A stretch of 64,000 nucleotides of DNA from Okamejei kenojei (Eukaryota): the NCBI GenBank assembly GCA_035221665.1, contig CM069151.1, positions 21,700,001 through 21,764,000 of the forward strand, in the 5' to 3' direction. Positions 1,718 to 48,740 of the stretch are shown piece after piece. Below the pieces are notes generated by a model, which did not search any database, was not told the DNA's origin, and saw only the letters and a list, made by a program, of their open reading frames with translations. Positions within the stretch are counted from its first letter, which is position 1, and each line of letters starts with the position of its first letter. The translations under genes were made by a program, and so were the position numbers.

Positions 1718-1924
1718 CAAAATATGTAGGAAGGAACAGCAGAGGCTGGTTTAAACCGAGGATAGACACAAAAAACTGGAGTAACTCAGCGGGTCAGGCA
1801 GCATCTCTGGAGAAAATGAATAGGTGGCGTTTCAGATCAAAGTCTGAAGTCTCGACCCAAAACATCACCTATTCCTTTTCTCCTGACCCGCTGAGTCACT
1901 CCAGTTTTTTGTGTCAAAAATCTT
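1718..1924. mobile_element. Fold-back PLE-derived short element
   Basis: Inverted arms (gacacaaaaaactggagtaactcagcgggtcagg / cctgacccgctgagtcactccagttttttgtgtc); flanking near-duplication ctgctccaagtaca 1704-1717 / ctgcttcaagtaca 1925-1938. Confidence 0.8.
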
Positions 1925-2654
1925 CTGCTTCAAGTACAGCCACCCATTCAACTGTAAGGAAATCAACGGGGTAGAGTTTGTTTTAAAATATTTATATTAT
2001 TTTTTACATGTGCATGCACATATGTATGTGTGCGTGTTGTGTGTGTACGCAAACATATGTTTGGGGCATATGGGCTTTTTCCCCGTACAACAAATTAATC
2101 ATTTTTATTATTTAATATTATTTTTGATTATGAAGATGCCTGGAGCAATCTTCAATATTTATGAATTGTTAAACCTCATCACAAAGCATTGGGGGAGAAG
2201 TCTGCCTGGGTGATAAAACTGTTCATGTGAGATGTCCCGTGCCGTGTAATCCTGATTACGGCATCACTAATGTGCTGGGAGGGGAGTCCCACCAGAGGCT
2301 GCACCTCAAACCACACAAGAAGCAGCATGGTTAATGATCAGACAACCCACTATCTCGGCTTATGGGAAGAAGGGCCCTATGAAAGCCTTGAGAAGCAACA
2401 GCCAGTGAAGTGTATAGAAACGCTTCAAGGACGAGAAGAATATGATGAGTGAGAACAGACAACATTGAAACAAAGAGCTCTTGACAGGGTCGATATTAAC
2501 AGGATGTTTTCCAGTGGGGGAATTCAAGAACTGGGAATCTCTGTTAAATAAGGGTTGCTCGTTTCAGACAAGTATGAGCTAAAAACGTTACTCGCAGTGA
2601 ATCATGAGTTTTTGGGACTCTGCCTCAAATAGCAATGAAAGTTCATCCTGAGCA

Positions 2655-3012
2655 ATACAGCTCACCCCCTCCATGACACACTGGTCTATCTGAGGAGTAC
2701 CTTCAGCAACTGACTGGTTCCACCAAGATGCAGGACAGAACGCCACAGGAGATCCTTCTTCCCTGTAGCTATCTAACTTTACAACTCCAGCCCCCTCTGT
2801 CGTGAGGGAGACTGACTCGCCTCCCCCCCTCCCCCCCCCCCTCCCCCCTCCCCCTCCCCCATCTTTGCACATGCCCCCAAGCCTTTCCCCTCGTCACTTT
2901 AATTTCATGTTTCATGTATTTAGATTATTGTGTATTTGGTGTTTTTTATGACTGTTTGGCAGATCAATTTCCCTCCTGGGATAAATAAAGTTCTATCGTA
3001 CCTTATCGTAAG
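2655..3012 (+). mobile_element. Rex1/Babar-type LINE 3' end, inserted in a degraded CR1 (CR1 pieces ~2470-2650 and ~3015-3140)
   Basis: Translates as HPLHDTL...STFSN..VPPRCRTERHRRSFFPVAI, a Rex1/Babar-like C-terminus, followed by AATAAA and a (TATCG)-like tail. Confidence 0.65.
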
Positions 3013-3458
3013 TAAAGTCTGAATATATTTGGACAGAAGCAGGGGGAAAATGTTATGGGGGAGATGGGAATGCAGAATTGAGTTTACAATCAGATCAGCC
3101 ATCATTTTCTTAAAGGTTGGACAGATCAATGAGTCTCTACTGATTTGTATGTTTGGGGAGCAGGTTAATTTATGAAAAAGGATGATAGGGAAATGGAGCA
3201 CAATTTTAATGAGATACAATTGCTGCTGTACAATCCTGCCCCTAAGAACTGTTATATTTTCATCAACATTTATTGTGCAATAACTCTCAATAGTTTCTTA
3301 ACTGTTAAAAAACAGTGGCCATGAATATACGTGGTGTCTTTCCTGATCTTGGGTCAACTCAAGAACATGGGAGTCTGTGAAACACATTTGAAGCATTATC
3401 ATCATTCTTAAGTATGTACAAACAGAAATGTGATCTAGACCAGATAGTGCAATGATGT

Positions 3459-3685
3459 GTAGGAAGGAACTGCAGTTGCTGGTTTATACTGAAGAAATAA
3501 ATACTGGAGTAACTTAGACACTAAATACTGGAGTAACTCAGCAGGTCAGGCAGCAACTCTGGAGAAAAGGAATAGGTGGATGTTTGGGTTGAGGCCCTTC
3601 TTCAGACTGGGTCGACTCGAAACGTCACCTATTCCTTTCCTCCAGTGATGTTGCCTGACCCACTGAGTTGCTCCAGCATTTTGTA
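3459..3685. mobile_element. Fold-back PLE-derived short element
   Basis: Inverted arms joined at cttcttcagac|tgggtcgactcgaaacgtc; perfect 10-bp TSD gcaatgatgt at 3449-3458 and 3686-3695. Confidence 0.85.
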
Positions 3686-4507
3686 GCAATGATGTCAGAT
3701 GAGGGACAAATATTGACTAGGGGAGTACATCAGGAGACTTTGTGAGATGCAGGAAAAAGGTCATAGGGATAGCAGAATTAGGCCATTTGGCCCATTGTCT
3801 TCTTCGCCATTCAATCTTGGCTGGTCTATCACTCCCTCCTCACCCTATTCTCCTGCTTTCTCCCCATAACCCCGGACAGCCGTACTTCTCAAGCTGTCAC
3901 ATGAGATGGAGGATTAGATTGGTGGATTTGTCATCTTCTTTGAGAAGTACCAGTAAAAGACACACTCTCCCAAGGAGGGTCAGAGGCATGCAAGCTGTCC
4001 ATGGAGCTAGCATCTGCTGCCTCTGGATGTGTGCCACTTTATGCTGCAATACAGACATAAGTGAGTGCCATGCTATCTATTTGGTTTTTACAGTTGGAAA
4101 AAATGACAGCGTGTACAACAATGCTAAGTGAGTGCTGGTGCAACAGAGACATTTTTGTTAAAAAAAATTGAGTATTTGATGCGGCATCACTGATGTTGCA
4201 GCATAAATAGGAGAAGGAAGAGAGGGCCTGACTACTTGAAAGGCAGGGGAAGGAGGGGTGAATGTGGCTGCTCGGGACACCTGCCTGGCCCGAGCTCAGG
4301 AAGCATGTCCTTGGTAGCTGAAGAGAAAGAAGGAACCCAGTCGAAAAATCTGCCAAGAAGTTGTTACTGAAATCTGTCACATACTCCAGACACTCGTTGC
4401 AGACAGTACTCCAACTAAAATGTAAGGTTATATCTACACGACTCCATCTATGCCATTGAACATCTAAGTTGTCCTAAATTATATTGCCTCCATATCACTC
4501 CTGTGAG

Positions 4508-6700: not shown

Positions 6701-7529
6701 AGTAGGGGGATTTCCCCAACATGTAATATTCAATGTCACAGGTAATCTGTTACTCACGTTCTAAAAATCTGAACTTTCTGCTTATAAACTAACCTAGCAA
6801 AGTTCAAAATTTACAAATAGTGAAAAAAAAATCCACACATTACAGTGAATTACGATATAATAATTTAAAATAATGCCCTTTTCTTCCATGAGGCATCATG
6901 CAGAATCAAATCTCCCAGGAGATACCATGTCATGGAAATGAAAGAGACTAAATGGATCACTGGTTGTTTGTTCTCTCTCGAAATGACAGCTTCCCCAATC
7001 CCACCACTGCCAGTCCATCAGTTGTCTGAAGCAGCAAGGCAGCCAGCCCAAGCTGCTGTCACTTGTGACAAAACAACAGTCTAAAGCTGGACCACTTTGA
7101 CCCGGAGTTGTTCAAAGCCACCCCTGTTCCATCTGCAACCTACTCCACAAGCTGCCTTCTACCGATTTGGCTTCAGCTGCTGAAGGACCAAAGCAGAAGA
7201 TAAGTGGGATATGCAGGGGTGACAGATGGCAGGTGCTGAGGATATACACAGATGTGATTCATCAATGTTTGTGCACTTTTTTCCTTGATGGAATGTACAA
7301 GTATGATTTTGAATGGTGGTTGGATTGATCAAGAATTAAAATCAAGTTGACAAAAAGACGATGCCACTGCCTTATCCCCAGGGTAGGGAGTCAAAATTTA
7401 AAGGCATAGATTTAAGGTGAGAGGGGAGAGATTTAAAAGGAAGCCAAGGGCCAACTTTCTCACACAGAAGGTGTCTACATGGAATGAGCTGTCAGAGGAA
7501 ATGACAGAGACAGGTACAATTCCTTATAT

Positions 7530-8955
7530 TGTCTATTATCCACTATTGTCTCTGTACCCAAAACGGCAAGGATTGCTTGTCTTAATGACTACAGGCCTGT
7601 CGTACTGACCTCTGTAGTCATGAAGACATTCGAAAGGCTTGTGCTGGCCAAGCTGAAAAATGTCACAAACTCCCTGCTGGACCCTCTGCAGTTTGCATAT
7701 CGGGCCAATAGATCTGTGGATGATGCAGTCAACCTGGGCCTGCACTTCATCCTACAGCACCTAGACCGCCAGGGGACCTATGCAAGGATCCTGTTTGTTG
7801 ATTTTAGCTCAGCATTCAACACCATTGTGCCAGAGCTACTACACTCCAAACTTTCCAAGTTGACTGTGCCTGAACCCCTCTGTCAGTGGATCACCAACTT
7901 CCTGACAGACAGGAAGCAGCATGTGAGGCTGGGAAAGCACATCTCGGACCTGCAAATGCTCAGCATAGGAGCACCGCAAGGCTGCGTACTCTCTCCTCTC
8001 CTCTACTCTCTCTACACCAACGACTGCACCTCCACAGGCACCTCTCAAGCTTGTCACGTTTGCAGACGACACAACCTTGATTGGACTGATCCAGGATGGG
8101 GAGGAATCTGCCTACAGACAGGAAGTGTCACAGCTGGCGTCCTGGTGCCGTAGCAACAACCTAGAGCTCAATGCTCTTAAGACAGTGGAATTGATTGTAG
8201 ACTTTAGGAGAGCTCCCCCTCCCCTCACCCCACTCACCATCAACAACACCACAGTCACATCTGTGGAGTCTTTTAAGTTCCTGGGAACCATCAGCTCCAA
8301 GAACCTTAAGTGGGGGGCGACCATCGACTCCACAGTCAAAAAGGCACAACAGAGGATGTACTTCCTGCGGCAGCTGATGAAGGTCAATCTGCCACAGGTA
8401 ATGATGGTCCAATTCTACAAAGCCATTGTAGAATCTGTTCTCACCTTCTCCATCATGGTCTGGTTTGGATCAGCCACCAAGCACGACACCTGGAGGCTGC
8501 AGCGAATCGTCCGATCAGCAGTGAAGGTTATTGGCTGCAACCTTCCCTCCATTGATGAACTGTACACTGCAAGGGCCAGGAAGCGAGTGGGCAAGATCTT
8601 CTCTGTCCCTGGCCACACACTCTTTGAATCACTTCCCTCTGGAAGGCGACTCCGGACTGTCAAACTGCCACAGCCAGACATAAAAACAGTTTATATCCAC
8701 GAGTAGTTGCTCTACTCAACAGCCAAAAATCTGTAGCCTCCCTTTGATCTGGTATTTTGTTGGTTCACATGCTTGATCAATGGTGTTTTATCATTAATGT
8801 TTTATTATTATTAATGTTTAGTGTTTCTGAGTCATTCGTATCTGTCACTGTATTTCATGTTGTTACTTGTGGGCGGAGCACCAGGGCAAATTCCTTGTAT
8901 GTGACTACTTGGCCAATAAAGTTACGTACTTACGCACTTACTGGCTGACTGACTG
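7530..8955 (+). mobile_element. 5'-truncated Rex1/Babar non-LTR retrotransposon (RT pseudogene)
   Basis: ORFs 7620-8153 and 8077-8706: LDPLQFAYR, ILFVDFSSAFNTI, GAPQGCVLSPLLYSLYTNDC, FADD (across a frameshift near 8040), LELNALKTVELIVDFR, VESFKFLGT; 3' AATAAA and short-repeat tail. Confidence 0.92.
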
Positions 8956-9274
8956 AAGAAACTGAATATCAAACAAGCAATTGACATGGAAACCTGAGAA
9001 CCACAGAAGCTGGAAATCTGAAATGAAAACAGAAAATTCTGGAAAAATTCAGATGTTCAGGCAGCATCTGTGGAGAGAAAAGTGGTAAACATTTCAGTGC
9101 CAGGATCTACCATCAAATTGCTGAAACCTAAAGGGGGTCATAATTTAGGTGAAAGCACTTTGTTAGCTAAGAGCTTCTCTTTGAGCGGAGCTCCTCTGTC
9201 CTGTCGTATATTCAGTAGTTGATTGCAAACTGAGAGAACGGATAAGGTTTAACGGATGTCCCATGGGATTTGTT

Positions 9275-9545
9275 TAATTCAGAGATTCAGCATGGAAGCA
9301 GCCCCTTTGCCACATCGAATTCATGCAGACCATCGACCACCCGTTCACACTAATACTGTGTCATCCCACTTTTGCATCCACTCCGTAAACACTCGGGCAA
9401 TTTAGAGGCCAATTAGCCTACAAACCCGCACGTCTTTGGGATGTGGGAGGAAACCAGAGCAACCGGTGGGAACCCACATGGAGATCGTGCAAAGTCCGCA
9501 CAGACATCACCCAGGGTCTGTGGCGTTGCGAGAAAGCAGCTCCAC
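9275..9545 (-). mobile_element. tRNA-derived SINE (HE1/V-SINE-like)
   Basis: ggcaatttagaggccaattagcctacaaacccgcacgtctttgggatgtgggaggaaaccagagc is shared with the copies at 11640, 14830, 42510, 56560 and 62362. Confidence 0.75.
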
Positions 9546-9572: not shown

Positions 9573-9795
9573 AGTGTACGAAGGAACTGCAGATGCTGGT
9601 TATAACCGAATATAGACACAAAATGCTGGAGTAACTCAGCGGGTCAGACAGCATCTCTGGAGAAAAGGAACAGGTGACATTTAGGATTGTGATCCTTCTT
9701 CGGACAGGGTCTCGACCTGAAACATCACCTGTTCCTTTTCTCCAGAGATGCTGTCTGACCCGCTGAGTTACTCCAGCTTTTTGTGTCTGTCTTCG
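9573..9795. mobile_element. Fold-back PLE-derived short element
   Basis: Near-perfect ~90-bp inverted arms; TSD ccaataacaa at 9563-9572 and 9796-9805. Confidence 0.88.
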
Positions 9796-10285
9796 CCAAT
9801 AACAATGTGACCTTTGCTGCAACAGGGTGAATGGGCAGAGCCCAGCACTGTGGCTGGAATTCTGACTCCAATAGGCGACAGATCTCATTGACCACCTCCT
9901 TGATGAGTCGTAACTCTCAAGCACATTATTCTCAATCGGGTGGACGTTGGACAGTTACTCATGAAAGATTCTTCAAAGATAAGTTCTCTCCCCTAGTCAG
10001 GTTTCCTTCCATTCAGGCCACATTTTCCTGATTCCAGCATGCTGATGCCCCAACTCATCAAAAACCAAAGTCTCCATTTCATGGCTTGATGATATCAATT
10101 GGAAACAAATATCATAATTTCCTTGTTAACATAAATATAACACATTTACCTATGAGCTATCAGATCCCCCAGTCAATGCTCAAGAAACCAGCAAGTAATT
10201 GAGTACAACCTCAAAAAGTACAGGTTAGGTTTTCCATTTGCTTGGACTAGTTTACCTTCACATGATACACATTGTGCATTAGCTT

Positions 10286-10669
10286 CAAAATGCTGGAGTA
10301 CCTCAGCAGGTCAGGCAACATCTCTGGAGAAAAGGGATGGATGACGTTTCAGGTCAGGACTCTTCTTCAGACTGAAAGTAGGGGGTGTGGGGGTGAAGAG
10401 CTGGAGGCAAGAAAAGACCAGGACCAATCAGGGCCGGCCACAAATGACCCCAGGCAGGTTTGTGCCTCGTAGGGCCATTGTTGGCTGGGAAAGGTGTGAC
10501 CTCAAGAGGAATAAAATGTGGAGAACTGTGGAACTGGTAAAATTACTACCCGACCCAAAATGTCACCCTTCCTTTTTCACCAGTGATGCAGCTTGACCTG
10601 CGGAGATATTTCAGCATTTTGTGTCTATCTTTGGTATAAACCAGCATCTGCAGTTCCTGTTTCTACGAC
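10286..10669. mobile_element. Fold-back PLE-derived element with internal PLE 3' sequence
   Basis: Inverted arms; hammerhead-like core on the minus strand at ~10343-10372; 12-bp TSD gtgcattagctt at 10274-10285 and 10670-10681. Confidence 0.85.
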
Positions 10670-11639
10670 GTGCATTAGCTTGACAGAAATGGTCAAAATT
10701 TGGCAAAGGCAAATGTAAAATAAGCATTGCAGGAAGGACTAACTTCACCAAGTCCTCGCTCTGCAGTGTGTTCCACAATGCACATAACCACACCTTTCAG
10801 GAATCTGCACGCAACTTTGCCTCATGGAACACCACAGACAGGAAATTCTGGATAGATTAGTTCCTTTATTGATGAAAAGAATGGCGTTAGAACAGCCAAG
10901 TTCAAGGGCAGAATGTTTTTACTTTCTGGACTTCCCATTTCTGATTTAATCTAACCTGCTTCAGATCAGCCTGAAGAATCCTCTCACAGTGTGTTGTTTA
11001 TTTTATTTTCAAGGTTGAGGGAATCAGTTCCCATTCTCCGGCCTTTGATTTTGGTGTGAATTGCCATCATTGTGTGGAGGAAACGTTTTATTAGCAGCCA
11101 CTAATGCAAGTTTCCCTGCATTAAAAAATCTTGGGAAAAGAACATCCCTAAATAAGTGAACGTTCTTTTTCGCTACTGCATAATGGAAGTTGATTTTACT
11201 GAGAGTGAAATGCAACATCAATCATTTCTGGGGCATTTCACGTGACTGGAAATCTGAGCATGCACTTGTAGACACAATGGACCTTTCCTTTTGCCGGGAG
11301 CGAGATCCATGTCAGCTGAAGGCAAGATAATGTTGTAATTCACACACATTCATTTCGAATCATTAGAGGGGAAATTAGATCAAGTTGTCCCAGGACTGTG
11401 GACAATCAGAGCTTCACAACAGAGTGTTGCACTGGGACCCTGTCGGACCTTTATTTATTTCCATCACTTTGGATCTATCCCCACTTCCCAATCTTAATCC
11501 TGGCCGGTGGACCTCAAGACCCAGCCTCATGACAGAGTCCCTGATCTGCCTATCCATCACCCTGCGCCCCCACCCCTCCAACCCTGATGTTGCTTGTGGA
11601 ACCTCAGCCTGCACCATCCATGTGCCTCTTTGTTTGGAG

Positions 11640-11910
11640 CTGCTGCATGGAAGCAGGCCCTTCAGCCCACCAACAGGTGCTTCAGCCCATGCCGAACAAC
11701 AATCACCCATATACTAGTTCTACCCTCCACACTTTTACAGAAGCCAATTGACTTGCAAAACTGTTGTGTCATTAGGATGTGGGAAGAAACCGAAGCACCT
11801 GGAGAAAACCCACATGGTTACACAGAGAACGAACAAACTCCATGCTAGTTGGGATTGAACCCAAGTCTCTGGTGATGTAAGGGGCACCTCTACCGCTGCA
11901 CCACTGCCCT
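11640..11910 (-). mobile_element. tRNA-derived SINE (HE1/V-SINE-like)
   Basis: B-box-like gggattgaacccaag read on the minus strand, plus the shared central domain. Confidence 0.72.
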
Positions 11911-12434: not shown

Positions 12435-12787
12435 TATCCAGTCTTCTCGATGTGGACCCCTGTATATCGGCGAGACCAAGTGCAGGCCGGGCAACTGTAT
12501 CGCTGAACACCTGCGCTCAGTCCACCTTGGCCTATGCGATCTCCCAGTCACCAAATATTTTAACTCACCTTCCCACTCCCATACTGACCTTTCCAGCCAA
12601 CAATGGGCCATTGTGGGTTCCACCTTTCCTGGCTCTGCTTTGTTCTGTATGCTCCTATACCTCCAGTGTCTCCCTCCCTGATTCTCAGTCTGAAGAAGTG
12701 TCTCAACCCGAAACGTCACCTATTCTTTTTCTCCAGGGATGCTGCCTGACCCACTGCATTACTCCAGATTTTTGTGCCTATCTTCAG
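12435..12787 (+). mobile_element. Penelope-like element 3' fragment: GIY-YIG endonuclease remnant plus pLTR
   Basis: CGPLYIGETKCRPGNCIAEHLRSVH...LPVTKYFNSPSHSHTDLS (YIGET..R..EH of the PLE GIY-YIG domain), followed on the same strand by the terminal repeat shared with the fold-back elements. Confidence 0.88.
12688..12720 (+). ncRNA. Minimal hammerhead ribozyme motif in PLE pLTR (stem II partly mutated)
   Basis: GT-CTGAAGA(12690-12696)-A-GTGT-CTCA-ACCC-GAAA(12710-12713)-CGTC-ACC. Confidence 0.6.
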
Positions 12788-14829: not shown

Positions 14830-15110
14830 TTGGAGTTTAGTGTTTAGAGATGCAGTGTGGATACAGCCCTTTCGACCCACTGAGTCCATGCTGACATCGC
14901 ACAACCACACTAGTTCTATGCTATCCCACTTTTGTATCATACACTCTAGGGGCAATTTACAGAGGCCAATTAACTTCCAAACCTGCACGTCTTCGGAATG
15001 TGGGAGGAAACTGGAACACCCGAAGAAAATCAAAACAGTCACAGGTAGATCGTACAAACTCCGTGCAGGTATGACCTGTAGTCAGGATTGAACCCGGATC
15101 TCTAAGTCTG
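14830..15110 (-). mobile_element. tRNA-derived SINE (HE1/V-SINE-like)
   Basis: Minus strand reads ggttcaatcctgactac (B box)...ggagtttgtacg...ctctaaacactaaac tail. Confidence 0.8.
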
Positions 15111-15639: not shown

Positions 15640-17290
15640 TTTCTTCTAAAACACATACAGGATTATTTTCTGGATTAGGAAAAAGACATCACTGTATCTG
15701 GAAATGAAACAAGGGAAGTGGATATAAGAGTACATCATGAAAGTAGCAGCTACACAATAATATAAAAATCAAAACAGAGAAGGAACGATCGAATCTATAT
15801 ATGTTTGACTGGCAAAAAGCCAGTTTCCAATCACATGAAAAGGGAACTATCCAGATATAGTGGAAAGAAAAATTGGCAGAAAAGTCGATGTATAAGCAAT
15901 AGCAAATGTTCAAAGATTAGTTGTTTAGGGAACAGGATGGAAATTGTCTCATAAGGATAAGAAAGGTACTAGAACAAAAGATAGAGTTACCTGGATACGT
16001 TAGAAATGTAAAATTATATATAAAGCAGAGGCTTATTGCAAATATTGCTTCATGTTTATTGTACAAAGTAATGGCGGAGGTGGAAGATGAAGGGGAAAAG
16101 TTTAGTGGCTGTGAACGATCTGCTTGATCACCTCTCTTGCCCTCAGAAAATGCTCAGATGTTTTTTTATGTGGGACATGGTAACCTCAGAGCACGGAGGC
16201 CAAGGGGCAGTGACGGGGAGCAACAGACAGTGTGGTTACAGTGACCATGGGTCGTGGTGTGGGTGGAGTTGGATGCTGGAGGTCTTATATGAGCCGGGTG
16301 CGGGAGCAGATCCAGTGCAGACTGTAGATGGACTCAAAAAGCTGGAGTAACGCAATGGATCAAGCAGCATCTACGAAGACTAGAGCAGCTGTACAGAGCG
16401 GTGGTGAAAAGGACCAACAACATGGAGCTGGGCCAGGCTGATCCCGACATCATTGATCCACTGTTGCCGGGGCACTGGGCCTTGGTGAGGAAATAAGAAA
16501 TTACAATCTCCTTAAGGCGAAGATCAGACTTTACAGGGACTTGAAACTTGCCAGATGGCGTAGGAACATGGCGACCTTTTAGATGCTGTTCTAGGAAAGC
16601 ATCTACAATTATCCACTGCAATTATTTCACTCTTACTTGTGTATGATTCTACTCTTGTGTCTAGTAGGCTGCACTGGATAGCATGCAAAATCAACTTTTC
16701 ACTGTATCTCAGTGCATGTCATAATTACTAAATTAAACTAAAACAAATGAAAATCCATGTAGAATATATAAAATATAAAGAAGGCCAAAAAGTGGAAAAG
16801 GACAGTTAATTAAGAATGTGAGCTCCTTGGTCAAGTTGAGACACAATTTGTACAAAAGGCAATTATAGCCTACAAAGAAGAAGAAGGAGCAATTAAATGA
16901 CATGATTATAGAGATGAATTATACTGAAAAAGTCATTGGAAGTTTTTGCCAAGATTTGCCAAACTTACTTCAGGAAGACTGTTGTGCCAGTATAGAATTA
17001 TGAAGGTGTTTCCAGGAATGAGAGGCTTTAGATATGAAGACCATCAGAATGAGAAAGGTTAAATGAGAATCTGACATTCAACATTAAAGAATGTTTACAA
17101 ATCTGGTAGGGGGTAACTATTTACATTATTTAGTACATTAGTAACCATGCAAATGGAAGCAGGGGATATGGGGAAAAGGCAGGAACTTGGTACTGATTGG
17201 GGATGATCAGCCATGATCACATTGAATGGCGGTGCTGGCTCGAAGGGCCAAATGGCCTACTCCTGCACCTATTGTCTATTGTCTATTGTC
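15640..17290 (+). mobile_element. Old degraded CR1 remnants with insertions (LINE-tail/PLE pieces ~16140-16745) and a younger CR1 tail at 17155-17290
   Basis: Degenerate CR1-like sequence; terminal (ATTGTCT)n tail after ggtgctggctcgaagggccaaatggcctactcctgcacct. Confidence 0.6.
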
Positions 17291-19601: not shown

Positions 19602-19697
19602 GTCTGAAGAAGGGTTTTGGCCCGAAACGTTGCCTATTTCCTTCACTCCATAGATGCTGCTGCACCCGCTGAGTTTCTCCAGCACTTTTGTCTACCT
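19602..19697 (+). mobile_element. 96-nt solo PLE pLTR unit containing an intact hammerhead core
   Basis: Perfect 12-bp TSD tcaagaaactgc at 19590-19601 and 19698-19709; CTGAAGA 19604-19610, stem II GGGT/GCCC, GAAA 19624-19627, CGTT. Confidence 0.85.
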
Positions 19698-26837: not shown

Positions 26838-26910
26838 TCAGGGAGCTGTATATTCAAACTCTGCCTCATCAAAGGTTGATGAGGCAGAGTTTGAATATAC
26901 AGCTCCCTGA
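26838..26910. repeat. Perfect inverted repeat: 35-bp arms, 3-nt loop
   Basis: tcagggagctgtatattcaaactctgcctcatcaa-agg-ttgatgaggcagagtttgaatatacagctccctga. Confidence 0.97.
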
Positions 26911-29614: not shown

Positions 29615-29800
29615 GAGACACAAGGAATTGCAGATGCTGGTTTACAAAAAAAACACACACACACAAAGAGCTGGAGTAACTGAGCGGGCCAGGCAGCATC
29701 TCTGGTGAAGGTGAAGGTTCCCGACCCAAAATGTCACCTGTTCGTGTTCTCCACCGATGCTGCTTGACCCGCTGAGTTACTCCAGCACTTCGCTTATTTC
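29615..29800. mobile_element. Fold-back PLE-derived short element (further partial arms at ~28990-29075, ~29990-30140, ~30465-30560)
   Basis: ctggagtaactgagcgggccaggcagcatc ... gatgctgcttgacccgctgagttactccagc. Confidence 0.78.
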
Positions 29801-31899: not shown

Positions 31900-32035
31900 G
31901 TGTGTAGGAAAGAACTGCAGATGCTGGTTTAAATCGAAGGTAGACACAAAATGCTGGAGTAACTCAACGGGACAGGCAGCATCTCTGGAGAGAAGGAATG
32001 GGTGACGTTTCGGGTCGAGACCATTTCTTCAGATC
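31900..32035 (-). mobile_element. PLE pLTR arm with hammerhead-like core
   Basis: Minus strand: ctgaagaaatggtctcgacccgaaacgtcacccattcc...ccagcatctgcagttctttcctacac. Confidence 0.8.
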
Positions 32036-32325
32036 GACAAGTTGGTAAGGTTCAAGATTGACAGGTTGGCAAGGGTGGTATGGCTGATGATGCTGGCTGC
32101 CTTTTTTGAGGCAGCGACTCATGTAGATCCCTTCCAGCCTGATCTCTGTCTCCAGAAAGTTAAGAGTCAAGAGTCAAGAGTGTTTTATTGTCATGTGTCC
32201 CAGAGAGAACAATGAAATTCTTATTTGCTGCAGCACAACAGAATATGCAAACATAGTATGATATGACAAACAAGAGAGAGAAAAGAAAAGCCCAGTGTGT
32301 ATATATACACATACTCACAACATGC

Positions 32326-32411: not shown

Positions 32412-34361
32412 TACACATACTCACAACATACCCATAATATATATACATATGCATAAAAAACAAACAAAACAGTGCAACGATAATAATAATTGTCTATTGT
32501 AGTTCAGAGCCTATGAGGTTGTAGTGTTTAATGTTCCTGAACCTGGACCTTACGGTTATCTTGCTCCTGTACCTTCTTCCCGATGGCAGTGGTGTAATGA
32601 GTGTGAGGCGAGGATGGTTCAGTTCACTTTTATTTGTCATATGTAGGTTAACTTAGGGTCAACGGTACAATGAAATGTGTTTGACAAGACAAGGGGTCAC
32701 CTCAGCAATGATATTACAAAGATAAAATTAATGTAACAAAAGATAAGATAAAAGTGACATTTGTAGGTAAAAGACTATAATAAATAAAATAATCAACATA
32801 TATGATGTGTTAATGAGTTCAGAAGCCTGATGGCATGATGATAAAAACTGTTCTTAAGTCTGGTGGTGCGTGCAGCCACGCTCCTGTATCGTCTGCCTGA
32901 CGGTAACAAGGAGAACAGTCTGCGTGCTGGGTGGCTGTGGTCCTTGATGATGCTGTGTGCCTTCCGCAGGCCTACCGCCTGTGGAAAATTTCCTGAATGG
33001 CCAGGAGATAGTTGCCAGTGATGTGCTGTGCTGCCTTCTCCACTCTCTGTAGTGATTTGCGGCTGTGGGCAGAACAGTTCCCGTACCAGACTGTGATGCA
33101 GCCCGTCAGCTGGCTCGCGATGGTGCAACTGTAGAAGTTTGTGAGGATGCTGGCGTTCATGCCAAACTTCCTCAGTCTTCTCAGAAAAAAAGAGCCGCTG
33201 GCGGGATTTCTTAGTTATTGTGTCCATGTGCAGAGTCTAAGAGAAGTCCTCAGTGATGTGCACACCGAGGAACTTGTTGCTGCTGACCCTTTCAAGCTCA
33301 GCATCACTGATGTGGATGGTGTGGGTCTCTGATGATGTTGGCTGCCTTTTTGAGGCATCGATTCTGATAAATCCCTTCGATGGTGGGGAGGTCAGAGCCG
33401 TTGATGGACTGGGCAGTGTTCATCACTTTTTTGAAGTCTTTTCCACTCCCGGGAGTTCAAGTTGCTGAACAGACAGATTTGTAATTCATGATTAATTGCT
33501 TCAACTTCAGTGCCCTTTGAGGAATTCTATACTGTATAGGCCTCTGTAAATTCTTATCAATAACATCTGTAGGCATACCTCCATTCACCTCATCTTCAAA
33601 AATGTAATTAGTTTCCCAGGGCTGATCTACCTTTACAAATGGTGGGAATTGAGGCCTTAAGTGTGAAACAGATCCATAGCACTTTCCGTGAAAAGTAGAA
33701 GTTAAACAGCCAGTTAATCATCAGCTGTAGCGAGAGGGCTGTATGTGGATTGTTCCTCAGTCAATGGCACTGGCCAGAGACCATGCAGTCAATCAGTTGA
33801 TCAGGAGAAGCATGGTATCTCGTCCTTAGCTGGAGTGCGGCTACTGTGGACTAGCTGGGGGAAGGAATAGGAAAGGTGAACAAAAGGAGAATAAACTCAG
33901 GAATTAAGGTACGGATGATGGACAGATGGAATCACAATGAGGAGTCCAAGTTACAAAGTTGGAGGAAAAGCTGAACAAGGGGAAAGAGAACATGGGTGGA
34001 CTGGTGGATTTAGGAAAGGAACACAGTGGGTGTTAGTGACCTGAAACTGGAAAATTAAATTACCATACCATTAGGTTGTAGGCGTTTTACATGGAATGTG
34101 AGGTGTTATTTTTCTGCTTTGCATTTGGCCTCACTGTTTCAGTAGAGAAGGCTGGGGACAGACAGGTTGGTGTGGGATGGGAACGGAAGTCAAAATAACA
34201 TGCAACTGGAAGCTCCAGATGGCCAATGTAGACAGAGAACAGCTGCTCTGCAAACCTGTCGCTTAATGTACACATGGTCTCGCTGATGTAGAGGAAGCTA
34301 CATCACAAGCTCCACATTCAATAGACTAGGCTGAATCTCTGCCTCACCTGGCAGGACTGAT

Positions 34362-35040
34362 AATGATAGACAATAGGCAATAGGTGCAGGAGTAGGCCAT
34401 TCGGCCCTTCGAGCCAGCACTGCCATTCAATGTGATCATGGCTGATCATCCACAATCAGTACCCCGTTCCTGCCTTCTCCCCATATCCCCTGACTCTGTT
34501 ATCTTTAAGAGCACTATCAAGTTCGCTCTTGAAAGTATGCAGAGGACCAGCCTCCACCGCCCTCTGAGGCAGAGAATTCCACAGACTCACAACTTTCTGT
34601 GTGAAAAAGTGTTTCCTCATCTCTGTTCTAAATGCCTTACTCCTTATTCTTAAACTGTGGCTCCTGGTTCTTTACTCCCCCAATATCGGGAACATGTTTC
34701 CTGCCTCTAGCATGTCCAAACCCTTAATAATCTTAAATGTTTCAATCTGACCCCCTCTCATCCTTCTAAATTACAGAGTATACAAGCCCAGCCACTCCAT
34801 TCTCTCAGCATATGACAGTTCCATCATCCCGGGAATTAACCTTGTGAAACTGTGCTGCACTCCCTCAATAGCAATAATGTCCTTCCTCAAATTAGGGGAC
34901 CAAAACTGCACCCAATACTCCAGGTGTGGTCTCACTAGGGCCCTGTGCAACTGCAGAAGGACCTCTTTGCTCCTATACTCAACTCCTCTTGTTACAAAGG
35001 CCAACATGTCATCCGTTGCCTGTTGTACCTGCATGTTAAC
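34362..35040 (-). mobile_element. CR1 LINE 3' fragment
   Basis: GVEYRSKEVLLQLHRALVRPHLEYWVQFWSPNLRKDIIAIEGVQ; (ATTGTCT)-like tail at ~34365-34385. Confidence 0.9.
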
Positions 35041-35425
35041 GACCGTAAATTGTGCTGAAGAGGGAAATGAAAGGACAAGCTTTAGTCCCTTACTGTCGCA
35101 GGCATGGGTGGGTGGGAGGGATGAGTGAACAAGGAGAGTCACAGAGAGAGTGGTCCCTACTGAATGTGAAAAGGCAGTAGGGAGAGGGGAAGATACGACG
35201 TGGTGTGATCCCATTTGAGCTGACAGAAATGATTGGATGCAGAGGCTGGTGGGATGTTAGGTGAGAACAAAGGGAACTCTATCTCAATTCTACCTGGAGC
35301 CAAGAGGGTTGAGTGTAAATGTGCAAGAAATGGAGGGAATGTGTGTGGGTCATCAACAATGGTAGAGGGAAAGCCACGTTTCTGGAAGGAGGACATATCA
35401 GAAGTACTAGAACTGAAAGCGTCAT

Positions 35426-35610
35426 GTAACTCAGCGGGACAGGCAGCATCTCTGGAGAGAAGGAATGGGTGACATTTCGGGTCGAGACCCTTCTTCAGAC
35501 TAGTTAGGGATGAGGGAAACGAGAGATATAGATGCCTGTCCCGCTGAGTTACGTCAGCTTTTTGTGTCTATCTTCAGTTTAAACTAGCATCTGCCGCTCC
35601 TTCCTACACA
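35426..35610. mobile_element. Fold-back PLE-derived short element
   Basis: Minus-strand core gtctgaagaagggtctcgacccgaaatgtcaccc with perfect stem II; the sense arm ends ttcctacaca. Confidence 0.82.
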
Positions 35611-35859
35611 TATTGAGGATGGAAGCAGTGGAGACAGAGAAACGGATGATGTCCTCAGAGCAGTCAAGGTGGGAGGAGGTTTAGCCAAGATAGCTTTGGG
35701 ACTCCATGAGTGTATAGTGGATATCAGTGGTTAGATTGTCTCCTGAGATGGAGACAGAGCAATCCAGAAACGGAAGTATCAGAGATAATCCAAGTAAATT
35801 TGAGGGCAAAGAGAACATGAAGGATAAATTGTCACTTTTTTGCACATCTTAAATTAATT

Positions 35860-36000
35860 TGTTCTATATCTCTCTATTTCACCGCTCTCGATTCCCTGTC
35901 CCCTGACTCTTAGTCTGAAGAACGGCCTCCTCCCGAAATGTCACCTATTCTTCTCTCCAGAGACGCTGCCTGAGCCGCTGAGTTACTCCAGCATTTGGTC
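35860..36000 (+). mobile_element. PLE pLTR arm directly upstream of the ccnd2 CpG island
   Basis: tagtctgaagaacggcctcctcccgaaatgtcacctattc...gagttactccagcattt. Confidence 0.75.
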
Positions 36001-36135
36001 TTTTATTTGTAGAACTTGGTGGCAAAGGAGATAGAATTGCTGAGTTCCGGAGACCCCGTTTCACATCCACAGCCCTCAGTGACTGGGAAGGCGGACTCAG
36101 TGACAGACCCTGGCAGCAGCAGCAGGTGGAGGGGC

Positions 36136-36385
36136 TGTCACTCACCGAGCAGGGGGCGGGTCTAGTGCCGCCGACGCGGCCGAGCGGTAGGCGGGACAAT
36201 GCCGCCGGCTCGTCCAATGGCAGCAGTGGGTCTCATGTCATTCACCGAGCAGGGGACGGGTCTAGTGCTGCCGACGCGTCCGAGCGGTAGGCGGGACAAT
36301 GCCGCCGGCTCGTCCAATGGCAGCAGCAGGTCCCATGTCACTCATCGTGTAGGGGCGGGTCCAGCCGCGCAGACGCGTCCAATGA
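36136..36385. repeat. 100-bp tandem duplication (2 full copies plus a diverged third) in the promoter
   Basis: Units start tgtca at 36136, 36236 and 36336; the first two are nearly identical. Confidence 0.9.
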
Positions 36386-38617: not shown

Positions 38618-38833
38618 GTCTGTGAGGAGCAGAAATGTGAGGAGGAAGTCTTTCCTTTGGCAATGAATTACCTGGACAGATTCTTATCAATTGAACGGAC
38701 AACCAAATGCCATCTGCAGCTGCTTGGAGCTGTCTGTATGTTCCTTGCATCCAAGTTCAAAGAAACCATTCCTCTAACAGCAGAAAAACTTTGCATTTTC
38801 ACTGATAACTCCATCAGACCATGCGAGCTTCTG
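38618..38833 (+). CDS. ccnd2: Cyclin D2 exon 2 (216 nt, cyclin box)
   Basis: ttcccag| [23 protein letters not shown]...[40 protein letters not shown] |gtaaat. Confidence 0.98.
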
Positions 38834-39953: not shown

Positions 39954-40594
39954 GTATGAGCACCTGCAACAGATACTGTATGAATATGAGGTACCTGTGG
40001 GAGAAAGTTGCCCTTGAGATTGCCTATATAAATCAGACTGAACCTCTTGTGCTTGGAAGGTATGGAGGAAAATATGAAATACAAATGGTGCTCCTGCTGA
40101 TGGAGCAAAATTGTTTTTGTTGGAAGAGAATTGGGATTTGTGTACATAGCCCCTTAGCAACATATCAACATTTTTTCCTGGATTTTTTTTTTCAGCCAGG
40201 TCTTATGTTCGAGATCTTAACATTTATTTCTTCAATTTTGTATGGTATTTAGTTATTCATCTATGTATGAAAAATATGTCATTGGGCAGTTCCAGTTAAC
40301 TTGTTCAATTTCAAATTCCTGCATCCTTGTCGATAATGGAGACTCGGTGTAAACCTGTCTGTAATTATGCTGTTAGGTTTTGTAATGCCCTCGAGTGGAA
40401 GGGAATAATTTCTAAGCAGCATGTTTACATGGGCAATTTTAATTCAACATTTAGACATAAATTTCATAAGAAAACTACAAATAAAAATGTAGGTAAAATT
40501 AATTACACCAGCATACTTTGGTCTCGTTCTTTTCTAATGGATTTAATTGAAGACTGGTTGATTTTCACTATTTGAACTAGATGTATTAGAAAAT

Positions 40595-40769
40595 AAGATG
40601 GTCACAAATTGTTTAAGTAACTCGGTGGGACAGGCAGCATCTCTGGAGAGAAGGAATCGGTGAGGTTTCGGGTCCAGACCCTTCTTCTCGGCATTTGTTT
40701 AATTGAGTTACTCCAGCATTTTGTGCCTATCTTTTGGTTTAAACCAGAATCTGTAGTTCCTTCCTACAC
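40595..40769. mobile_element. Fold-back PLE-derived element in intron 3
   Basis: Inverted arms; 19-bp TSD with one mismatch, actagat(g/a)tattagaaaat at 40576-40594 and 40770-40788. Confidence 0.82.
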
Positions 40770-42509
40770 ACTAGATATATTAGAAAATTGGTTTATTCAT
40801 GTTTATTTTAAGATTTATTTACTGAATGGATGTTTAACTAAGTTGGAATTTAATAGAATCCTTGAGTGTTTTCACTTTAATTTAAAAAAAAAAAGCAATT
40901 TGATTAATCCAATTCCAAAGCAGACTGCGAACCATGAAGGCAACTATACCATTAGCTTTTATTCATACAATGCAATAAACAAAGTTCAACGATCACTGCA
41001 GTAACTATTACAATAGGGGATGTGTTCAATAACCTGGTGATGTGTTGAATAACCTGGTTACAGAAGGTGGATCCCTGTTCAGGGAGTTAACATATTAATT
41101 ATTCATATCTTTAAAGCCACCTGTCAGTTATTGTCTGTAAGTCAAAGAAACTTGAGCTTTAATAAAAGTAATTAATTGTGAAGCTTCACAAAATTAATGT
41201 TGCCAAGGGATGATATTTGGGCCCTCTAGTTTGTCCTTGTGCTGAAAACTACAATTCTCTTCTATATACTAACAGCCCAAAAGTATGAAATGTGTAGTTC
41301 ATGAGGTAATTATAGCATTGCAGAATATCTCCATTAGGAAAGCAGTTTACCTTTTAACACCATTTCTCTCACTGCAATTGCAGTTTCTAGAGCACTTTTT
41401 CCATTTGTATTTAAGTCTAAACCAAAAATGACTGGTCATTTCAATAAAATTCTTAAAATGTAGGATTTTAGTGTCAAATGATCACTGAACAGCATTATAA
41501 TCTGTAATTGTCATGATAATGTGAAGTTTACAGTTTTAGCTATTTTAGCTGCAAATAAATTCTTAATTTGCTTTCTGTTGGATATGTATAAAATAATTCA
41601 ACTCAATAAAAATGTGCTAGGCAGGTTTGGTTTCCGGTTTAAAAACGGGTCCAGAGAAAATGTTGCGTCCATTGCAGATTACTCGGGTGAAAAGTATTTC
41701 ATATTCCCTGGCATTAACTTTGTACTGTGCTGACATTAGCAAATTTCAAATATTAACACTAATTTAGCCTTGCGGATATTTCCTGCTGAAGATACTGTTT
41801 ACATTGTGATTTCATGTTCATAAGCCACTAAGTATTGCTAGTCTCATTAGTAGTTCTGTAAATACCTGATGATTATTGTGTTTTAGGTTGGTTTACAAAA
41901 TCTAAGCATAATTATTGTTTAGGCAAGTCGCTAAATCCATCTTAATTAATTCATCCCAAGGCTTCTAATCTATTGTCTGTTTTGCAACATTAAATTGTTT
42001 CTTGAATGTTAATATGCATGTTTTCATGTCAATTTCCTGTGTCCCGTTCATAATTTTATTTATAACATCCAACTAACGATCATTTTTTGGCTGTATTACA
42101 ACAACAAAAAATTCTCCATCTGAATTAATAATACACATCACAGTACAGTTTGTAACCTTCTATGACTTGATTCTATAATGTAACCCATGTATCTCAATGT
42201 TTTGTGACTTCACTTTTATATTGATTGGCTGTATTTTCTTTCATGTATAAAAAGACCTAGATTTCTTAGGTATTCATCTCCACCTAATTTAATTAATGAT
42301 GGTGATGGGTCTTGTGGTGTGGATAGAATATAGTTGGCCTTAAGGTTCAGAGTATTTAATTTCATATTTTAATATTAGTCTTGCATAATAGACGTCTCTT
42401 AGCTCACTAATTTTATGCTGGCAACACCACCAATTCTTTTCCTCCACTTATTTCCCTGTAACCAATTCGCACAACATGCCCATCAACTTGAATCTGGTAT
42501 TTCAGTCGC

Positions 42510-43381: not shown

Positions 43382-44193
43382 TAAATGCCCTGCCCTCAGG
43401 CCTTTTGTGAGCTTGTCGATTTGAATTCGTATCAGTTGGAAGGTCATTTCCATGATTTTCAATACGAAAAGATGAGGAGGTGGCTCCAGACAATGGTGCC
43501 ACACTCTCCTGTTGGAGACACTTGCCTCCCCATTTGCAGTAGTTAATTAATATGCTAAAAATAGAAGCCTTTGATACAAATCACTCCCTGTTGCACAACA
43601 AAGAAAGAACACGTGGAGCTTTGATAGCCAAGTTTATGGTGCTTGCTGTGGAGGAAAGCAAGAGTGGAGATAGAAGCTATGCAACACTTTTTAAGAAACA
43701 TTAGTCACTAGGTCTTTGGCTGTTTGCTAGCTGTCCGTATTTATATTGTGAATGGCATTTAAAGGAACCTACAATGTTATTCGGCATTGAAATTGTGATT
43801 ACATGTGGAAGCAGACCTACCACAGTGTTGGTTGGCAGGAGTACTGTGGTTCTTTATTCAGATTTTCATGATCATTTGCTTCTGGGATGCCATTTTACTG
43901 AAAAGGGAACCATATGTTCTGATTTCAAATGTTGGAATTCATCTGAGTTCTATTTGAATCAGTCTGCTCAGATGTTGATTTATGTAGAAAGTGTGTTTAT
44001 AACATACATAGAAAATAGGTGCAGGAGTAGGCCATTCGGTCCTTTAAGCCAGCACCATCATTCAATGTGATCATGGCTGATCATCCACAATCATTTTTTT
44101 CAGCATGAAGACTGTATTTTAGAAATTTAATTTAAAATCATATACAAGTGTATGATTGAAGCTTTGAAGATTTTCTGGTATTTATCCATATAG

Positions 44194-44342
44194 ATTTCAA
44201 ATTTGCCATGTATCCACCATCAATGATTGCGACTGGAAGTGTGGGGGCAGCAATATGTGGACTTCAGCTCGATATTGGCTACTATTCACTTTTAAATGAC
44301 AACTTGACAGATCTCTTGGCCAGCATCACACACACAGATGTG
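44194..44342 (+). CDS. ccnd2: Cyclin D2 exon 4 (149 nt)
   Basis: atatag| (D)[24 protein letters not shown]...[13 protein letters not shown] |gtgagt. Confidence 0.98.
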
Positions 44343-47123: not shown

Positions 47124-47224
47124 GGATGCTGAAGTCTGAAGGGTCTTGACCCGAAACATCACCCATTCCTTCCCTGATACTGCCTGCCCTGCTGAGTTAC
47201 TCCAGCATTTTGTGTCTACCTTCA
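47124..47224 (+). mobile_element. Solo PLE pLTR unit in intron 4 (hammerhead core damaged)
   Basis: gtctgaa-gggtcttgacccgaaacatc...tgtgtctaccttc; 10-bp TSD tgatagagga at 47114-47123 and 47225-47234. Confidence 0.78.
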
Positions 47225-48264
47225 TGATAGAGGATGAGGTTTATGCAGAAGAATGACATCTGAGAAACTGAGATTTGTGGGTGCTTAATTTAGACAGCTC
47301 GTCAGCCTGATGTTGAGTACACAGAAACACTGGCAGTTTAAATCTCAATTACATTGACTATAACTGCAATCTTCAAGTAAACTGCTGCTTTTAAACAATA
47401 TGCTGGCTTCAACTTTAAAGTAAATCCAGCTGAGGGAAATGTTTTCAAACCATTTTGTATACTGGGCTAGGTATGTGTCCGCCATGTGTACACACACAGT
47501 GTAACTAGTGAGGGCAGGATTGGACAGTCAGCATTATAGCATGACATTGCACATAATGGAAAATCCTACTTGGGAAGGTTGAATTCACGAAGGCTGCAGC
47601 AATTGTGTATCCTCGCACTAAACCAGCTCTATGCAGGTTATCGCAAATGTCTACATGGAATTCCTGTGCAATTGGCATGCATGCTTCCGTAAAATCAAAT
47701 AAAAAAGACAGCTTAGTAATAAGTCAACTGATATACATGGTCTATTGAGGGCATTATTGCACTGAGAAAAATATTAATTGTAACCTATCTTTTCTCATCA
47801 ATTGGGGACAACCTTCCTAAGTTCCTAATATATGTTTTTTTCTGAGTATGCAATGCACATCAAATTTGGTGAAGTAGAAGGTGAAACCTTTACCCACCAG
47901 AGCCTTTGCCAATCATGATTCTGGGCCATGTTCTTTTATGGATTGGAGGATGTATTCCTGGCAATTTCTATCACTGACTTCTGGTTCAAGCTTTCCTAGC
48001 AAGTCAAGTAGTATATTTTCCTATCTGATACTTCTGTCACTGTAAACAGGTGTTCAAAGAAAATAACAATAAACTTTTAAATTCCTCCACTATTTTTCTC
48101 CGTGGTATGCAGTAGTATCAATCACTTTATTCACAGTGCAAGCCAATGTTAGAGTTAGAAATTTAAACATTTGTAGGTCAGTCTCAAGTGTGGATGATGT
48201 TGCACATGTGTTAACGATCAAAAATTTTGAAGTGGTTTGCCATGGCTTGATATAGCTTAGTGGT

Positions 48265-48740
48265 AATTAAAAGGAACTGTAGATGCTGGTTTATATCAAA
48301 GATGCAAAATGTTCGAATAATTCAGCGTGTCAGGCAGGAAACATGTTCCCGATGTTGGGGAGTCCAGAACCAGGGGCCACATTTTAAGAATATGGGTAAG
48401 CCATTTAGAAGGGAGACGAGGAAACACTTTTTCTTACAGGGTTGTGAGTCTGTGGAATTCTCTGCCTCAGAGGGCGGTGGTGGCTGGTTCTCTGGATACT
48501 TTCAAGATAGGGCTCTTAAAGATAGTGGAGTCGGGGGATATGGGGAGAAGACAGGAACGGGGTACTGATTGGGGATGATCAGCCATGATCACATTGAATG
48601 GCGGTGCTGGCTTGAAGGGCTCCTGCACCTATTGTCTATTGTCATATCTGGAAATATCAGGACCCGACCATAACCGTCACCTATCCATTTTCTCCAGAGA
48701 GGTTGCCTGACCTGAGTTACTCCAGCATTTTGTGTCTATC
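48265..48740. mobile_element. Fold-back PLE-derived element with a CR1 3' fragment (~48337-48643, +) inserted in it
   Basis: 14-bp TSD tatagcttagtggt at 48251-48264 and 48741-48754; the inner CR1 ends in attgtctattgtc. Confidence 0.85.

Follow-up and report, generated by a model that had tools for sequence, protein, structure and literature searches.

Short dispersed repeats in a 64,000-nucleotide stretch of the Okamejei kenojei genome (NCBI GenBank assembly GCA_035221665.1, contig CM069151.1, positions 21,700,001 to 21,764,000 of the forward strand; here called the window) were best explained as truncated, often inverted ends of a Penelope-like element (PLE) and not as a new ribozyme-driven element. 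A probability of roughly 0.7 is assigned to this explanation. The repeats are very probably the 3'-terminal pseudo-long terminal repeat (pLTR) of an endonuclease-bearing PLE, left behind as very short, dead and decaying insertions. With equally high confidence, the unit of about 100 nt (tail-less) or 135 nt (tailed) is taken as the pLTR from a minimal hammerhead to the 3' end of the element. The parent PLE was probably of the Neptune type, judging from sequence comparison. Read in this way, the case is chiefly a point for annotation, as dense PLE ends are liable to be mislabelled as short interspersed elements (SINEs), miniature inverted-repeat transposable elements (MITEs) or unclassified repeats.

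A decaying repeat family attached to PLE coding remnants

The family was defined with an iterated nhmmer profile (E ≤ 0.01) run on the window, with the reversed window as control. The profile found 26 arms of the unit in the window and none in the control. Grouped by hand, with ends also set by hand, these arms made up 18 insertions, whose combined length of about 2,975 bp is 4.6% of the window, and no arm was found past position 48742. A first-pass annotation, made from the DNA letters, had reported more than a dozen copies of a unit of about 130 nt. The family was borne out, and the full stretch from the 5' edge of the ribozyme through the tail was present in only three of the 26 arms (the minus-strand arms at 3459, 9573 and 31903). 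Arms under 140 nt (22 of 26) far outnumbered those linked to the open reading frame (ORF), of which there were four. The 3' tail of about 35 nt was clear in nine arms, degraded in one old arm and missing from 16. Of 80 CpG cells, 41 were kept, 32 had become TG or CA and seven were otherwise changed; because of this CpG decay, the copies are regarded as neutral relics. Positions in the unit are counted from C3 of the hammerhead as +1, and cleavage is predicted between +28 and +29.

Two coding remnants adjoined the unit. One was a GIY-YIG endonuclease (EN) remnant at 12436-12594. The other lay on the minus strand at 35819-34040, in the order reverse transcriptase (RT) end (35819-35636), linker (35425-35042) and GIY-YIG (34359-34040). 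A 55-aa piece at the 12435 copy, which lacks the end of the GIY-YIG domain, had 71 relatives at E ≤ 1e-3. Eight of these relatives were scanned: six matched GIY-YIG, and P0017 showed RT followed by GIY-YIG, both below the Pfam cut-offs. A word-seeded search with the same piece gave two candidates, neither significant. Pfam assigned no family to the window's own PLE pieces, so their PLE identity came through the relatives. The unit at 12435-12787 lay sense to and downstream of the GIY-YIG remnant, as the first pass had noted, and the attachment to RT and GIY-YIG remnants upheld the PLE origin proposed there. Among 120 RT/GIY-YIG relatives, the whale-shark protein P0164 was the top scorer for the two EN remnants and also for the RT end, which comprised about 60 degraded residues in the window. 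A Cys-rich linker lay between RT and EN in 103 of the 107 relatives with an EN motif, P0164 included, and its copy in the window (around 35050-35090) was degraded and frameshifted. Such a linker is given as a mark of both Neptune and Nematis in the available text of Craig 2021 (PMC8557442). No target site duplication (TSD) was found for the large PLE body, three candidates of 9-10 bp being judged chance. Local blastx of the unit against the 120 relatives gave no match to the N-terminal part of the ORF. The proteins P0006, P0012, P0022, P0111 and P0153 combined PLE pieces with domains or names that have no relation to PLEs (DUF4518, Zn ribbon, zinc fingers, XIAP name) and are probably gene-prediction chimeras.

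The column majority of the arms held a minimal type I hammerhead with a conserved core, an extra base before helix II and a palindromic helix III stub, as the first-pass annotation had described. Helix II comprised 4-5 bp. Helix I comprised 2 bp (24 of 26 cells paired), the lower of the 2-3 bp annotated earlier. The motif was intact in only two of the nine arms spanning it, and four of the nine retained the helix III palindrome, in line with the decay noted before. In a local alignment that inflates conservation at the 5' edge and conceals insertions in three arms, non-CpG core columns were conserved at 0.967 compared with 0.871 elsewhere, a level that 20,000 column resamples never reached. 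The figure for the four interior core columns, away from the 5' edge, was 0.975. G12 sits in a CpG and was retained in 13 of 20 arms. Of the two signs that the first pass had asked for, preferential conservation of the core was found and covariation in stem II was not: the covariation score was no higher than in shuffles (0.124 versus 0.116; 138 of 500 shuffles equal or above). In helix II, 79% of cells were paired with one two-sided change, at low power given 16 of 26 arms aligned and decayed copies of few subtypes.

A purpose-written hammerhead descriptor matched the window twice (19604, plus strand; 35498, minus strand), compared with three matches in 30 Markov shuffles. An Rfam scan of the window up to E = 1 returned seven weak matches, none of them a hammerhead, which is read as a model limit for minimal variants and not as disproof. 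Single-arm folds were no more stable than their own shuffles (seven sequences, z −1.2 to +1.0). A 26-nt hammerhead stretch had no exact match in a prokaryotic genome collection, an expected and uninformative result. Most simply, the selection behind the conserved core acted on the parents of the copies. If active at all, the hammerhead would act on the tandem transcript of the parent PLE, as a dimer or with protein help.

Insertion anatomy and the 5' ends of the arms

TSDs of 10-19 bp, none with more than one mismatch, flanked nine of the 17 loci tested, with boundaries set by eye and locus 35858 left out; the random-interval null was 1/1,500. No clear AT preference was seen in the TSDs (61% versus 58% AT). 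All eight TSD-flanked insertions listed in the first pass as independent were confirmed, and a ninth at 31903-32066 had not been listed. The data thus bore out independent insertion of the endonuclease type. Six of those eight (1718, 3459, 9573, 10286, 40595 and 48265) each consisted of two inverted arms within one TSD pair, a feature absent from the first pass. In the whole set, two arms were joined head-to-head in eight of 18 insertions, and ten insertions had a single arm, three of these with their own TSD. These eight head-to-head insertions and the second PLE remnant at 34040-35819 were the anatomy that the first-pass annotation had missed.

The tail was found on exactly one arm in all eight two-armed insertions. 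Without 35426, in which the tail-less arm is cut short, the rule held in seven of seven (0.5^7 = 0.008). The inversion junctions all differed and fell inside the hammerhead in three insertions (1718, 3459 and 9573). The 3' ends formed two classes about 35 nt apart, at +85 to +97 in tail-less and +128 to +132 in tailed arms. They fell 22-27 nt past copies of CCAGCA (+75, +105), except for three tail-less arms ending at +85/+86, and these repeats are a possible positioning signal. Hairpins computed for transcripts through six paired insertions ranged from −58 to −152 kcal/mol. Intronic palindromic copies such as 40595 would yield double-stranded RNA in host pre-mRNA.

Arm starts were classed by hand (n = 26). 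Four arms extended upstream of the unit, nine started at −2 to +3, seven at +6 to +21 and six at +39 to +66; the late start at 48340 was caused by a nested fragment of a long interspersed element (LINE). Nine of the 22 short arms thus started within 5 nt at the ribozyme 5' edge (P = 0.0003, uniform null). With two degraded arms dropped (seven starts), the same pile-up gave P = 0.018. None of the 26 arms started at the cleavage site (+29 ± 5), and the ribozyme was not permuted across the ends. The first-pass annotation had named random truncation of PLEs as the outcome that would speak against a separate family. The layout was indeed that of truncated, inverted, one-tailed PLE insertions, but the truncation was random only in part because the 5' ends pile up at the ribozyme edge. 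Run-off copying of the transcript's first pLTR is the simplest reading of this pile-up. It is likewise predicted by a short non-autonomous master, which therefore stays among the candidates.

Right at the ribozyme 5' edge, all four long arms carried an initiator-like YYANWYY motif together with a YAG preceded by a pyrimidine run, compared with backgrounds of 1.2% and 0.3% of positions for the initiator-like and the splice-site signal. Either signal would set the RNA 5' end or a splice junction at that edge. A transcript start at −3 would leave helix I with only 2 bp. In Drosophila virilis Penelope, an intron ends at helix I according to the available texts of PMC4209133 and PMC2377424. An intron ending at the ribozyme was also considered here, with an acceptor-like signal present and a good donor lacking by eye. 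The ORF end of the large PLE remnant (34030-34050, minus strand) had a splice-donor-like context by eye. Combined with the acceptor-like signal before the hammerhead, it is a speculative hint of an intron in the 3' untranslated region (UTR).

Six arms under 60 nt were dropped from the arm tree, leaving 20 of 26. Long (UTR- or ORF-attached) and short arms were mixed on it, with 4 label changes compared with 3.6 after shuffling. One group with support of 88/91 consisted of one long and two short arms.

Proposed mechanism, known systems and competing explanations

The details of the proposed mechanism are held with slightly better than even confidence. The PLE protein would cut both target strands with a stagger of 10-19 nt, directly visible here in the TSDs. 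Two-strand target cutting was demonstrated in vitro for another PLE (Frangieh 2024, PMC11167929). RT would start inside the RNA at either of two sites about 35 nt apart, giving the tail-less and tailed ends seen directly as two classes. Both target ends would then be primed, one per start site, and the two short cDNAs joined head-to-head. Two-ended priming followed by end joining would explain why each inverted pair has exactly one tail and a junction of its own, both of which are direct observations. Priming in the transcript's first pLTR, with the cDNA running off the RNA 5' end at the ribozyme edge, would explain the many copies of about 100-135 nt starting at −2 to +3 without a separate master. 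The present copies would have been made from uncleaved RNA, and templates uncleaved by the ribozyme were directly evident in the copies.

This anatomy agrees with published descriptions of EN-bearing PLEs, as far as the available texts go. PLE insertions are typically heavily truncated at the 5' end, lie next to an inverted copy that is also 5'-truncated and have a tail of 30-40 bp, often at one end only (Craig 2021, PMC8557442). Inverted pLTRs with a tail on one and TSDs of 8-10 bp were reported, head-to-head being the commonest arrangement (Arkhipova 2013, PMC3846280). For a Poseidon element, two internal RT start sites bracket the tail, both strands are cut and extended, a dimer is predicted and the main template is unprocessed RNA (Frangieh 2024, PMC11167929). 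The window shares with Neptune and Poseidon elements the RT-linker-GIY-YIG remnants, a terminal-repeat hammerhead in the same orientation as the ORF (12435-12787), strong 5' truncation, an adjacent inverted copy, a one-end tail of 30-40 nt and TSDs. It differs in the extreme truncation, the density of 18 insertions in 64 kb, TSDs of up to 19 bp compared with 8-10 bp in rotifer examples, the pile-up of 5' ends at the ribozyme edge and the lack of a tandem pLTR in the window. The anole Poseidon PAc (Frangieh 2024) shares two 3' end classes around a tail downstream of the hammerhead and an uncleaved template. It belongs to another clade and its ORF starts at stem II, whereas the unit had no blastx match. 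The origin of inverted, one-tailed PLE insertions has been called unresolved (Craig 2021, PMC8557442; Frangieh 2024, PMC11167929). Extrapolated from one window, 18 insertions in 64 kb would mean a very large number of such events across the genome, sufficient to put two-ended priming, the tail rule and the 5' boundary to the test with no bench work.

Metazoan PLE minimal hammerheads were described as mostly single, probably truncated PLE copies, with some opposite-strand pairs 100-700 bp apart and thousands per genome in coelacanth and Xenopus (Cervera and de la Peña 2014, PMC4209133). The type I core, the extra base between A9 and helix II, the G10.1-C11.1 pair, the palindromic helix III stub and the mostly single dispersed copies with some opposite-strand pairs are shared with the present unit. 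Helix II of 4-5 bp compares with 7-8 bp in Schistosoma, and helix I of 2 bp is as in the D. virilis variant. Shark or skate terms were not found in the two supplement files of that paper that were searched. A possible relative is NSRE1, an unclassified nurse-shark repeat of about 100 nt reported in 24 of 177 bacterial artificial chromosome ends and 17 times in about 170 kb (Luo 2006, PMC1513397). The first 18 nt of the NSRE1 probe primer matched the window seven times with at most three mismatches, always in the unit's hammerhead, and never in 100 shuffles. The whole 24-nt primer had no window match at three mismatches, the shortening to 18 nt being post hoc. On this one primer, NSRE1 looks like a homologue of the unit, with which it shares the length of about 100 nt, dispersal and abundance. 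A probable identity is thereby offered for the unclassified nurse-shark repeat. Together with the top score of the whale-shark protein P0164, the primer match pointed to a cartilaginous fish as the probable host of the family. NSRE1 was described as specific to nurse shark, hybridisation being absent in little skate and two sharks, and the available part of the paper draws no link to PLEs or ribozymes (PMC1513397). No paper tying NSRE1 or chondrichthyan repeats to PLE hammerheads was found in a search thin on subscription literature. The unit family may well be catalogued in Dfam or Repbase already.

Several observations weigh against PLE ends produced by two-ended priming. Arms of the same insertion were mutual closest matches in only three of eight pairs, giving weak support to one shared template per pair. 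The tail-less arm extended further 5' in six of eight pairs, which was not significant (p = 0.29). Two-ended priming is inferred here, whereas Arkhipova 2013 proposed self-priming on an antisense template, and the in vitro results were obtained with a Poseidon element, of a different clade from the present PLE. Neither a full-length element nor a direct (tandem) pLTR pair was found in the 64-kb window, and no hammerhead unit followed the stop of the large PLE remnant, so that the parent PLE had to be pieced together from fragments. Tandem or partial-tandem copies around a full ORF are expected to be rare. The initiator or splice-site signal of the four long arms counts only once because these arms are homologous, and a convincing splice donor was not seen by eye. 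The arm tree had no starred branch, and a single clade of nine short-start arms was not formally rejected (p-AU 0.07).

The last point would suit a separate non-autonomous, SINE-like family, descended from at least one short master (−2 to +96/+131) that is itself transcribed and that the PLE protein retroposes in trans. What can be defended of the first-pass proposal is this reading, which is considered unlikely. The sharp 5' boundary in nine of 22 short arms and the 22 to 4 excess of short over ORF-linked arms also agree with it. According to the available texts, a pLTR in cis is enough for mobilisation in trans (Arkhipova 2013, PMC3846280), non-autonomous PLE derivatives exist (Craig 2021, PMC8557442) and the dispersed repeat NSRE1 of about 100 nt, the probable homologue, is plentiful in nurse shark (PMC1513397). 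A short master leaves unexplained that the eight two-armed insertions lack a common junction and that 13 of 22 short arms start elsewhere. Subtype variants are common to long and short arms, which interleave on the tree, and sequence upstream of −2, a possible promoter site, is missing from the copies. The unit also lacks a tRNA head, and a run of at least four T was kept in 21 of 26 arms. A run of four or more T is expected to stop RNA polymerase III (Pol III). A Pol III SINE was rejected on the T runs, the lack of a tRNA gene and the lack of an Rfam match over the 5' part of the unit. A bolder version, likewise held to be improbable, would make the RNA of about 100-135 nt starting at the minimal hammerhead the mobile unit itself across elasmobranchs, NSRE1 included. 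It would be transcribed by Pol II, PLE-driven and SINE-like without a tRNA head, and a dimeric PLE protein would prime both cut ends at two start sites 22-27 nt after CCAGCA (+75, +105). If this were true, the one-tailed palindromes would be a genomic record of an undefined PLE integration step, readable by sequence statistics.

PLE ends might also have been inverted by fold-back self-priming or by copying of an antisense transcript, and not by priming at both target ends. This was put forward by Arkhipova 2013 from palindromes at head-to-head junctions (PMC3846280), and the three junctions within the hammerhead could favour fold-back. Fold-back alone leaves unexplained the single tail in eight of eight pairs with both ends abutting the TSD, and simple snap-back pairing did not fit the 9573 junction by eye, so this route is regarded as doubtful. 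A non-LTR retrozyme, in which the hammerhead frees a monomer that circularises and is reverse transcribed into tandem copies, is very improbable. The unit resembles non-LTR retrozymes as a short non-coding repeat with a type I hammerhead related to PLE pLTRs and with TSDs above 4 bp. Vertebrate retrozymes are traced to PLE pLTRs in a 2026 preprint, which finds some of them in the single chondrichthyan genome that it covers (bioRxiv 10.64898/2026.07.22.740005). Retrozymes are described as head-to-tail arrays of 150-450-bp units giving circular RNAs (PMC7229834; bioRxiv 10.64898/2026.07.22.740005), whereas the present unit is solo or head-to-head and is not bounded by the cleavage site. Neither the 27 Tandem Repeats Finder rows nor the 26 arms contained a head-to-tail repeat of the unit. 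Helix I has 2 bp, whereas the canonical type I hammerhead of retrozymes has 6 bp there and loop-loop contacts, and the facing orientation of paired copies means that a transcript would fold as a long hairpin and not as a dimeric ribozyme. As tandem arrays, ends at the cleavage site and a 6-bp helix I were all missing, the retrozyme reading was contradicted in the window. The separate retrozyme-like family of the first pass was not supported, in view also of the eight differing junctions and the mixing of arms on the tree. Short, abundant inverted-repeat elements between TSDs recall a MITE-like DNA transposon with long terminal inverted repeats, an explanation given almost no weight. The two arm ends differ, only one being tailed, TSDs range in length from 10 to 19 bp, ten of 18 insertions are single-arm and the unit is attached to RT/GIY-YIG remnants. 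A MITE was ruled out by the asymmetric ends and the variable TSD length.

Feature coordinates and neighbouring sequence

The insertions and the pieces of the larger PLE body are listed in Table 1. In the insertion at 31903, the extra 30 nt at 32036-32066 resemble, by eye, a degenerate tandem duplication of about 24 nt overlapping the TSD and the first bases of the arm.

Table 1. Unit insertions and PLE body pieces in the window (arm starts in unit numbering; flanking repeats of 6 bp were not counted as TSDs)
Position	Strand	Type	Structure	TSD
1718-1924		two-armed	tail arm (−) ~1725-1841, start near +14/+16; tail-less arm (+) 1842-1924, start −2, two internal deletions	14 bp, 1 mismatch; 1704-1717 / 1925-1938
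3459-3685		two-armed	tail arm (−), start −2, small internal duplication; tail-less arm (+), start in stem II	10 bp exact; 3449-3458 / 3686-3695
8995-9107	−	single arm	old, diverged; degraded tail (15/29 tail matches)	not found
9573-9795		two-armed	tail arm (−), start −2; tail-less arm (+), start +8; private variants common to both	10 bp exact, 14 with one mismatch; 9563 / 9796
10286-10669		two-armed	tail-less arm (−) reaching ~190 nt upstream of ribozyme into PLE 3'UTR/pLTR, upstream part with 22/24 nt in common with 12435 copy; tail arm (+), start in stem II	12 bp exact; 10274-10285 / 10670-10681
12435-12787	+	5'-truncated PLE piece	GIY-YIG remnant 12436-12594, then internal deletion and upstream pLTR; hammerhead unit starting at 12688; tail-less	not found
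16322-16375	−	single arm	short, old, tail-less, start ~+41	not found
19602-19697	+	solo arm	tail-less, start −2, divergent subtype; sole arm with core, stem II and palindromic helix III all intact	12 bp exact; 19590-19601 / 19698-19709
28985-29080	−	solo arm	tail-less, 5' edge degraded	not found
29615-29805		two-armed	tail arm (−), start ~+40; tail-less arm (+), start +6	6-bp flanking repeat
30091-30148	+	single arm	short, tail-less, start ~+39	not found
30458-30559	−	solo arm	tail-less, start −2	6-bp flanking repeat
31903-32066	−	solo arm	tailed, 31903-32035, start −1, plus ~30 nt of 5' sequence outside unit	11 bp exact; 31892-31902 / 32067-32077
34040-34359	−	larger PLE body	GIY-YIG remnant to ORF end; frameshifted, stops	
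34365-35035		LINE-type insertion	later insertion between linker and EN parts of PLE body	
35042-35425	−	larger PLE body	RT-EN linker remnant including degraded Cys-rich stretch	
35426-35611		two-armed	nested in PLE ORF remnant; arm (−) ~−25 to +73 lacking its 3' end, with intact core and stem II and a broken helix III palindrome; tail arm (+), start +46	none left
35636-35819	−	larger PLE body	C-terminal RT remnant, 5'-truncated near 35820-35830	
35858-36005	+	canonical PLE 5' inversion	inverted 5'-truncated pLTR arm, start ~−58, tail-less, beside 5' end of PLE body	
40595-40769		two-armed	cyclin D intron; tail-less arm (−), start ~+3; tail arm (+), start +66	19 bp, 1 mismatch; 40576-40594 / 40770-40788
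47124-47224	+	solo arm	intronic; tail-less, start −2 preceded by 10 extra nt	10 bp exact, 13 with one mismatch; 47114 / 47225
48265-48740		two-armed	intronic; tail arm (−) 48265-48340; tail-less arm (+) 48660-48740; 310-bp LINE 3' fragment at junction	14 bp exact; 48251-48264 / 48741-48754

A cyclin D gene occupied 37137-57800 on the plus strand. Exon 1, from 37137 in a CpG island, matched cyclin D3/D1 at E ~1e-20, and further exon motifs lay at 38621, 39824, 44214 and 57741. The insertions at 40595, 47124 and 48265 were intronic in this gene. Just upstream of its start, at 36136-36361, was a GC-rich 100-bp tandem repeat of 2.3 copies at 89%.

One LINE 3' end family was present at 34365-35035, 48340-48650, 49055-49914, 17154-17286 and 44006-44093, with 75-94% likeness. 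Two of these copies interrupted PLE insertions, and short microhomology with the PLE arm was seen at the 48340 junction. The LINE pieces are taken to be CR1-like and L2/Rex-like, the family at 34365-35035 and 48340-48650 presumably being the CR1-like one. A frameshifted non-LTR RT remnant at 7488-8706 (plus strand), with RVT_1 above the cut-off and an ALKBH8_N match, was not a PLE. A dispersed repeat about 230 bp long that looks like a SINE was found at 9278-9511, 14843-15076, 11700-11910, 56690-56744 and 62394-62451. Identity was about 70% between 9278-9511 and 14843-15076, and 11700-11910 was assigned by eye. A near-perfect 73-bp palindrome at 26838-26910 (95.9% self-complementary) was single-copy in the window and unrelated to the unit. 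It had a weak Rfam match to mir-1954, far below the cut-off, and is possibly a small MITE-like element. Inverted repeats of 157 bp at 60790-60946 and 62185-62341, 88% alike and 1.2 kb apart, were also unrelated to the unit.

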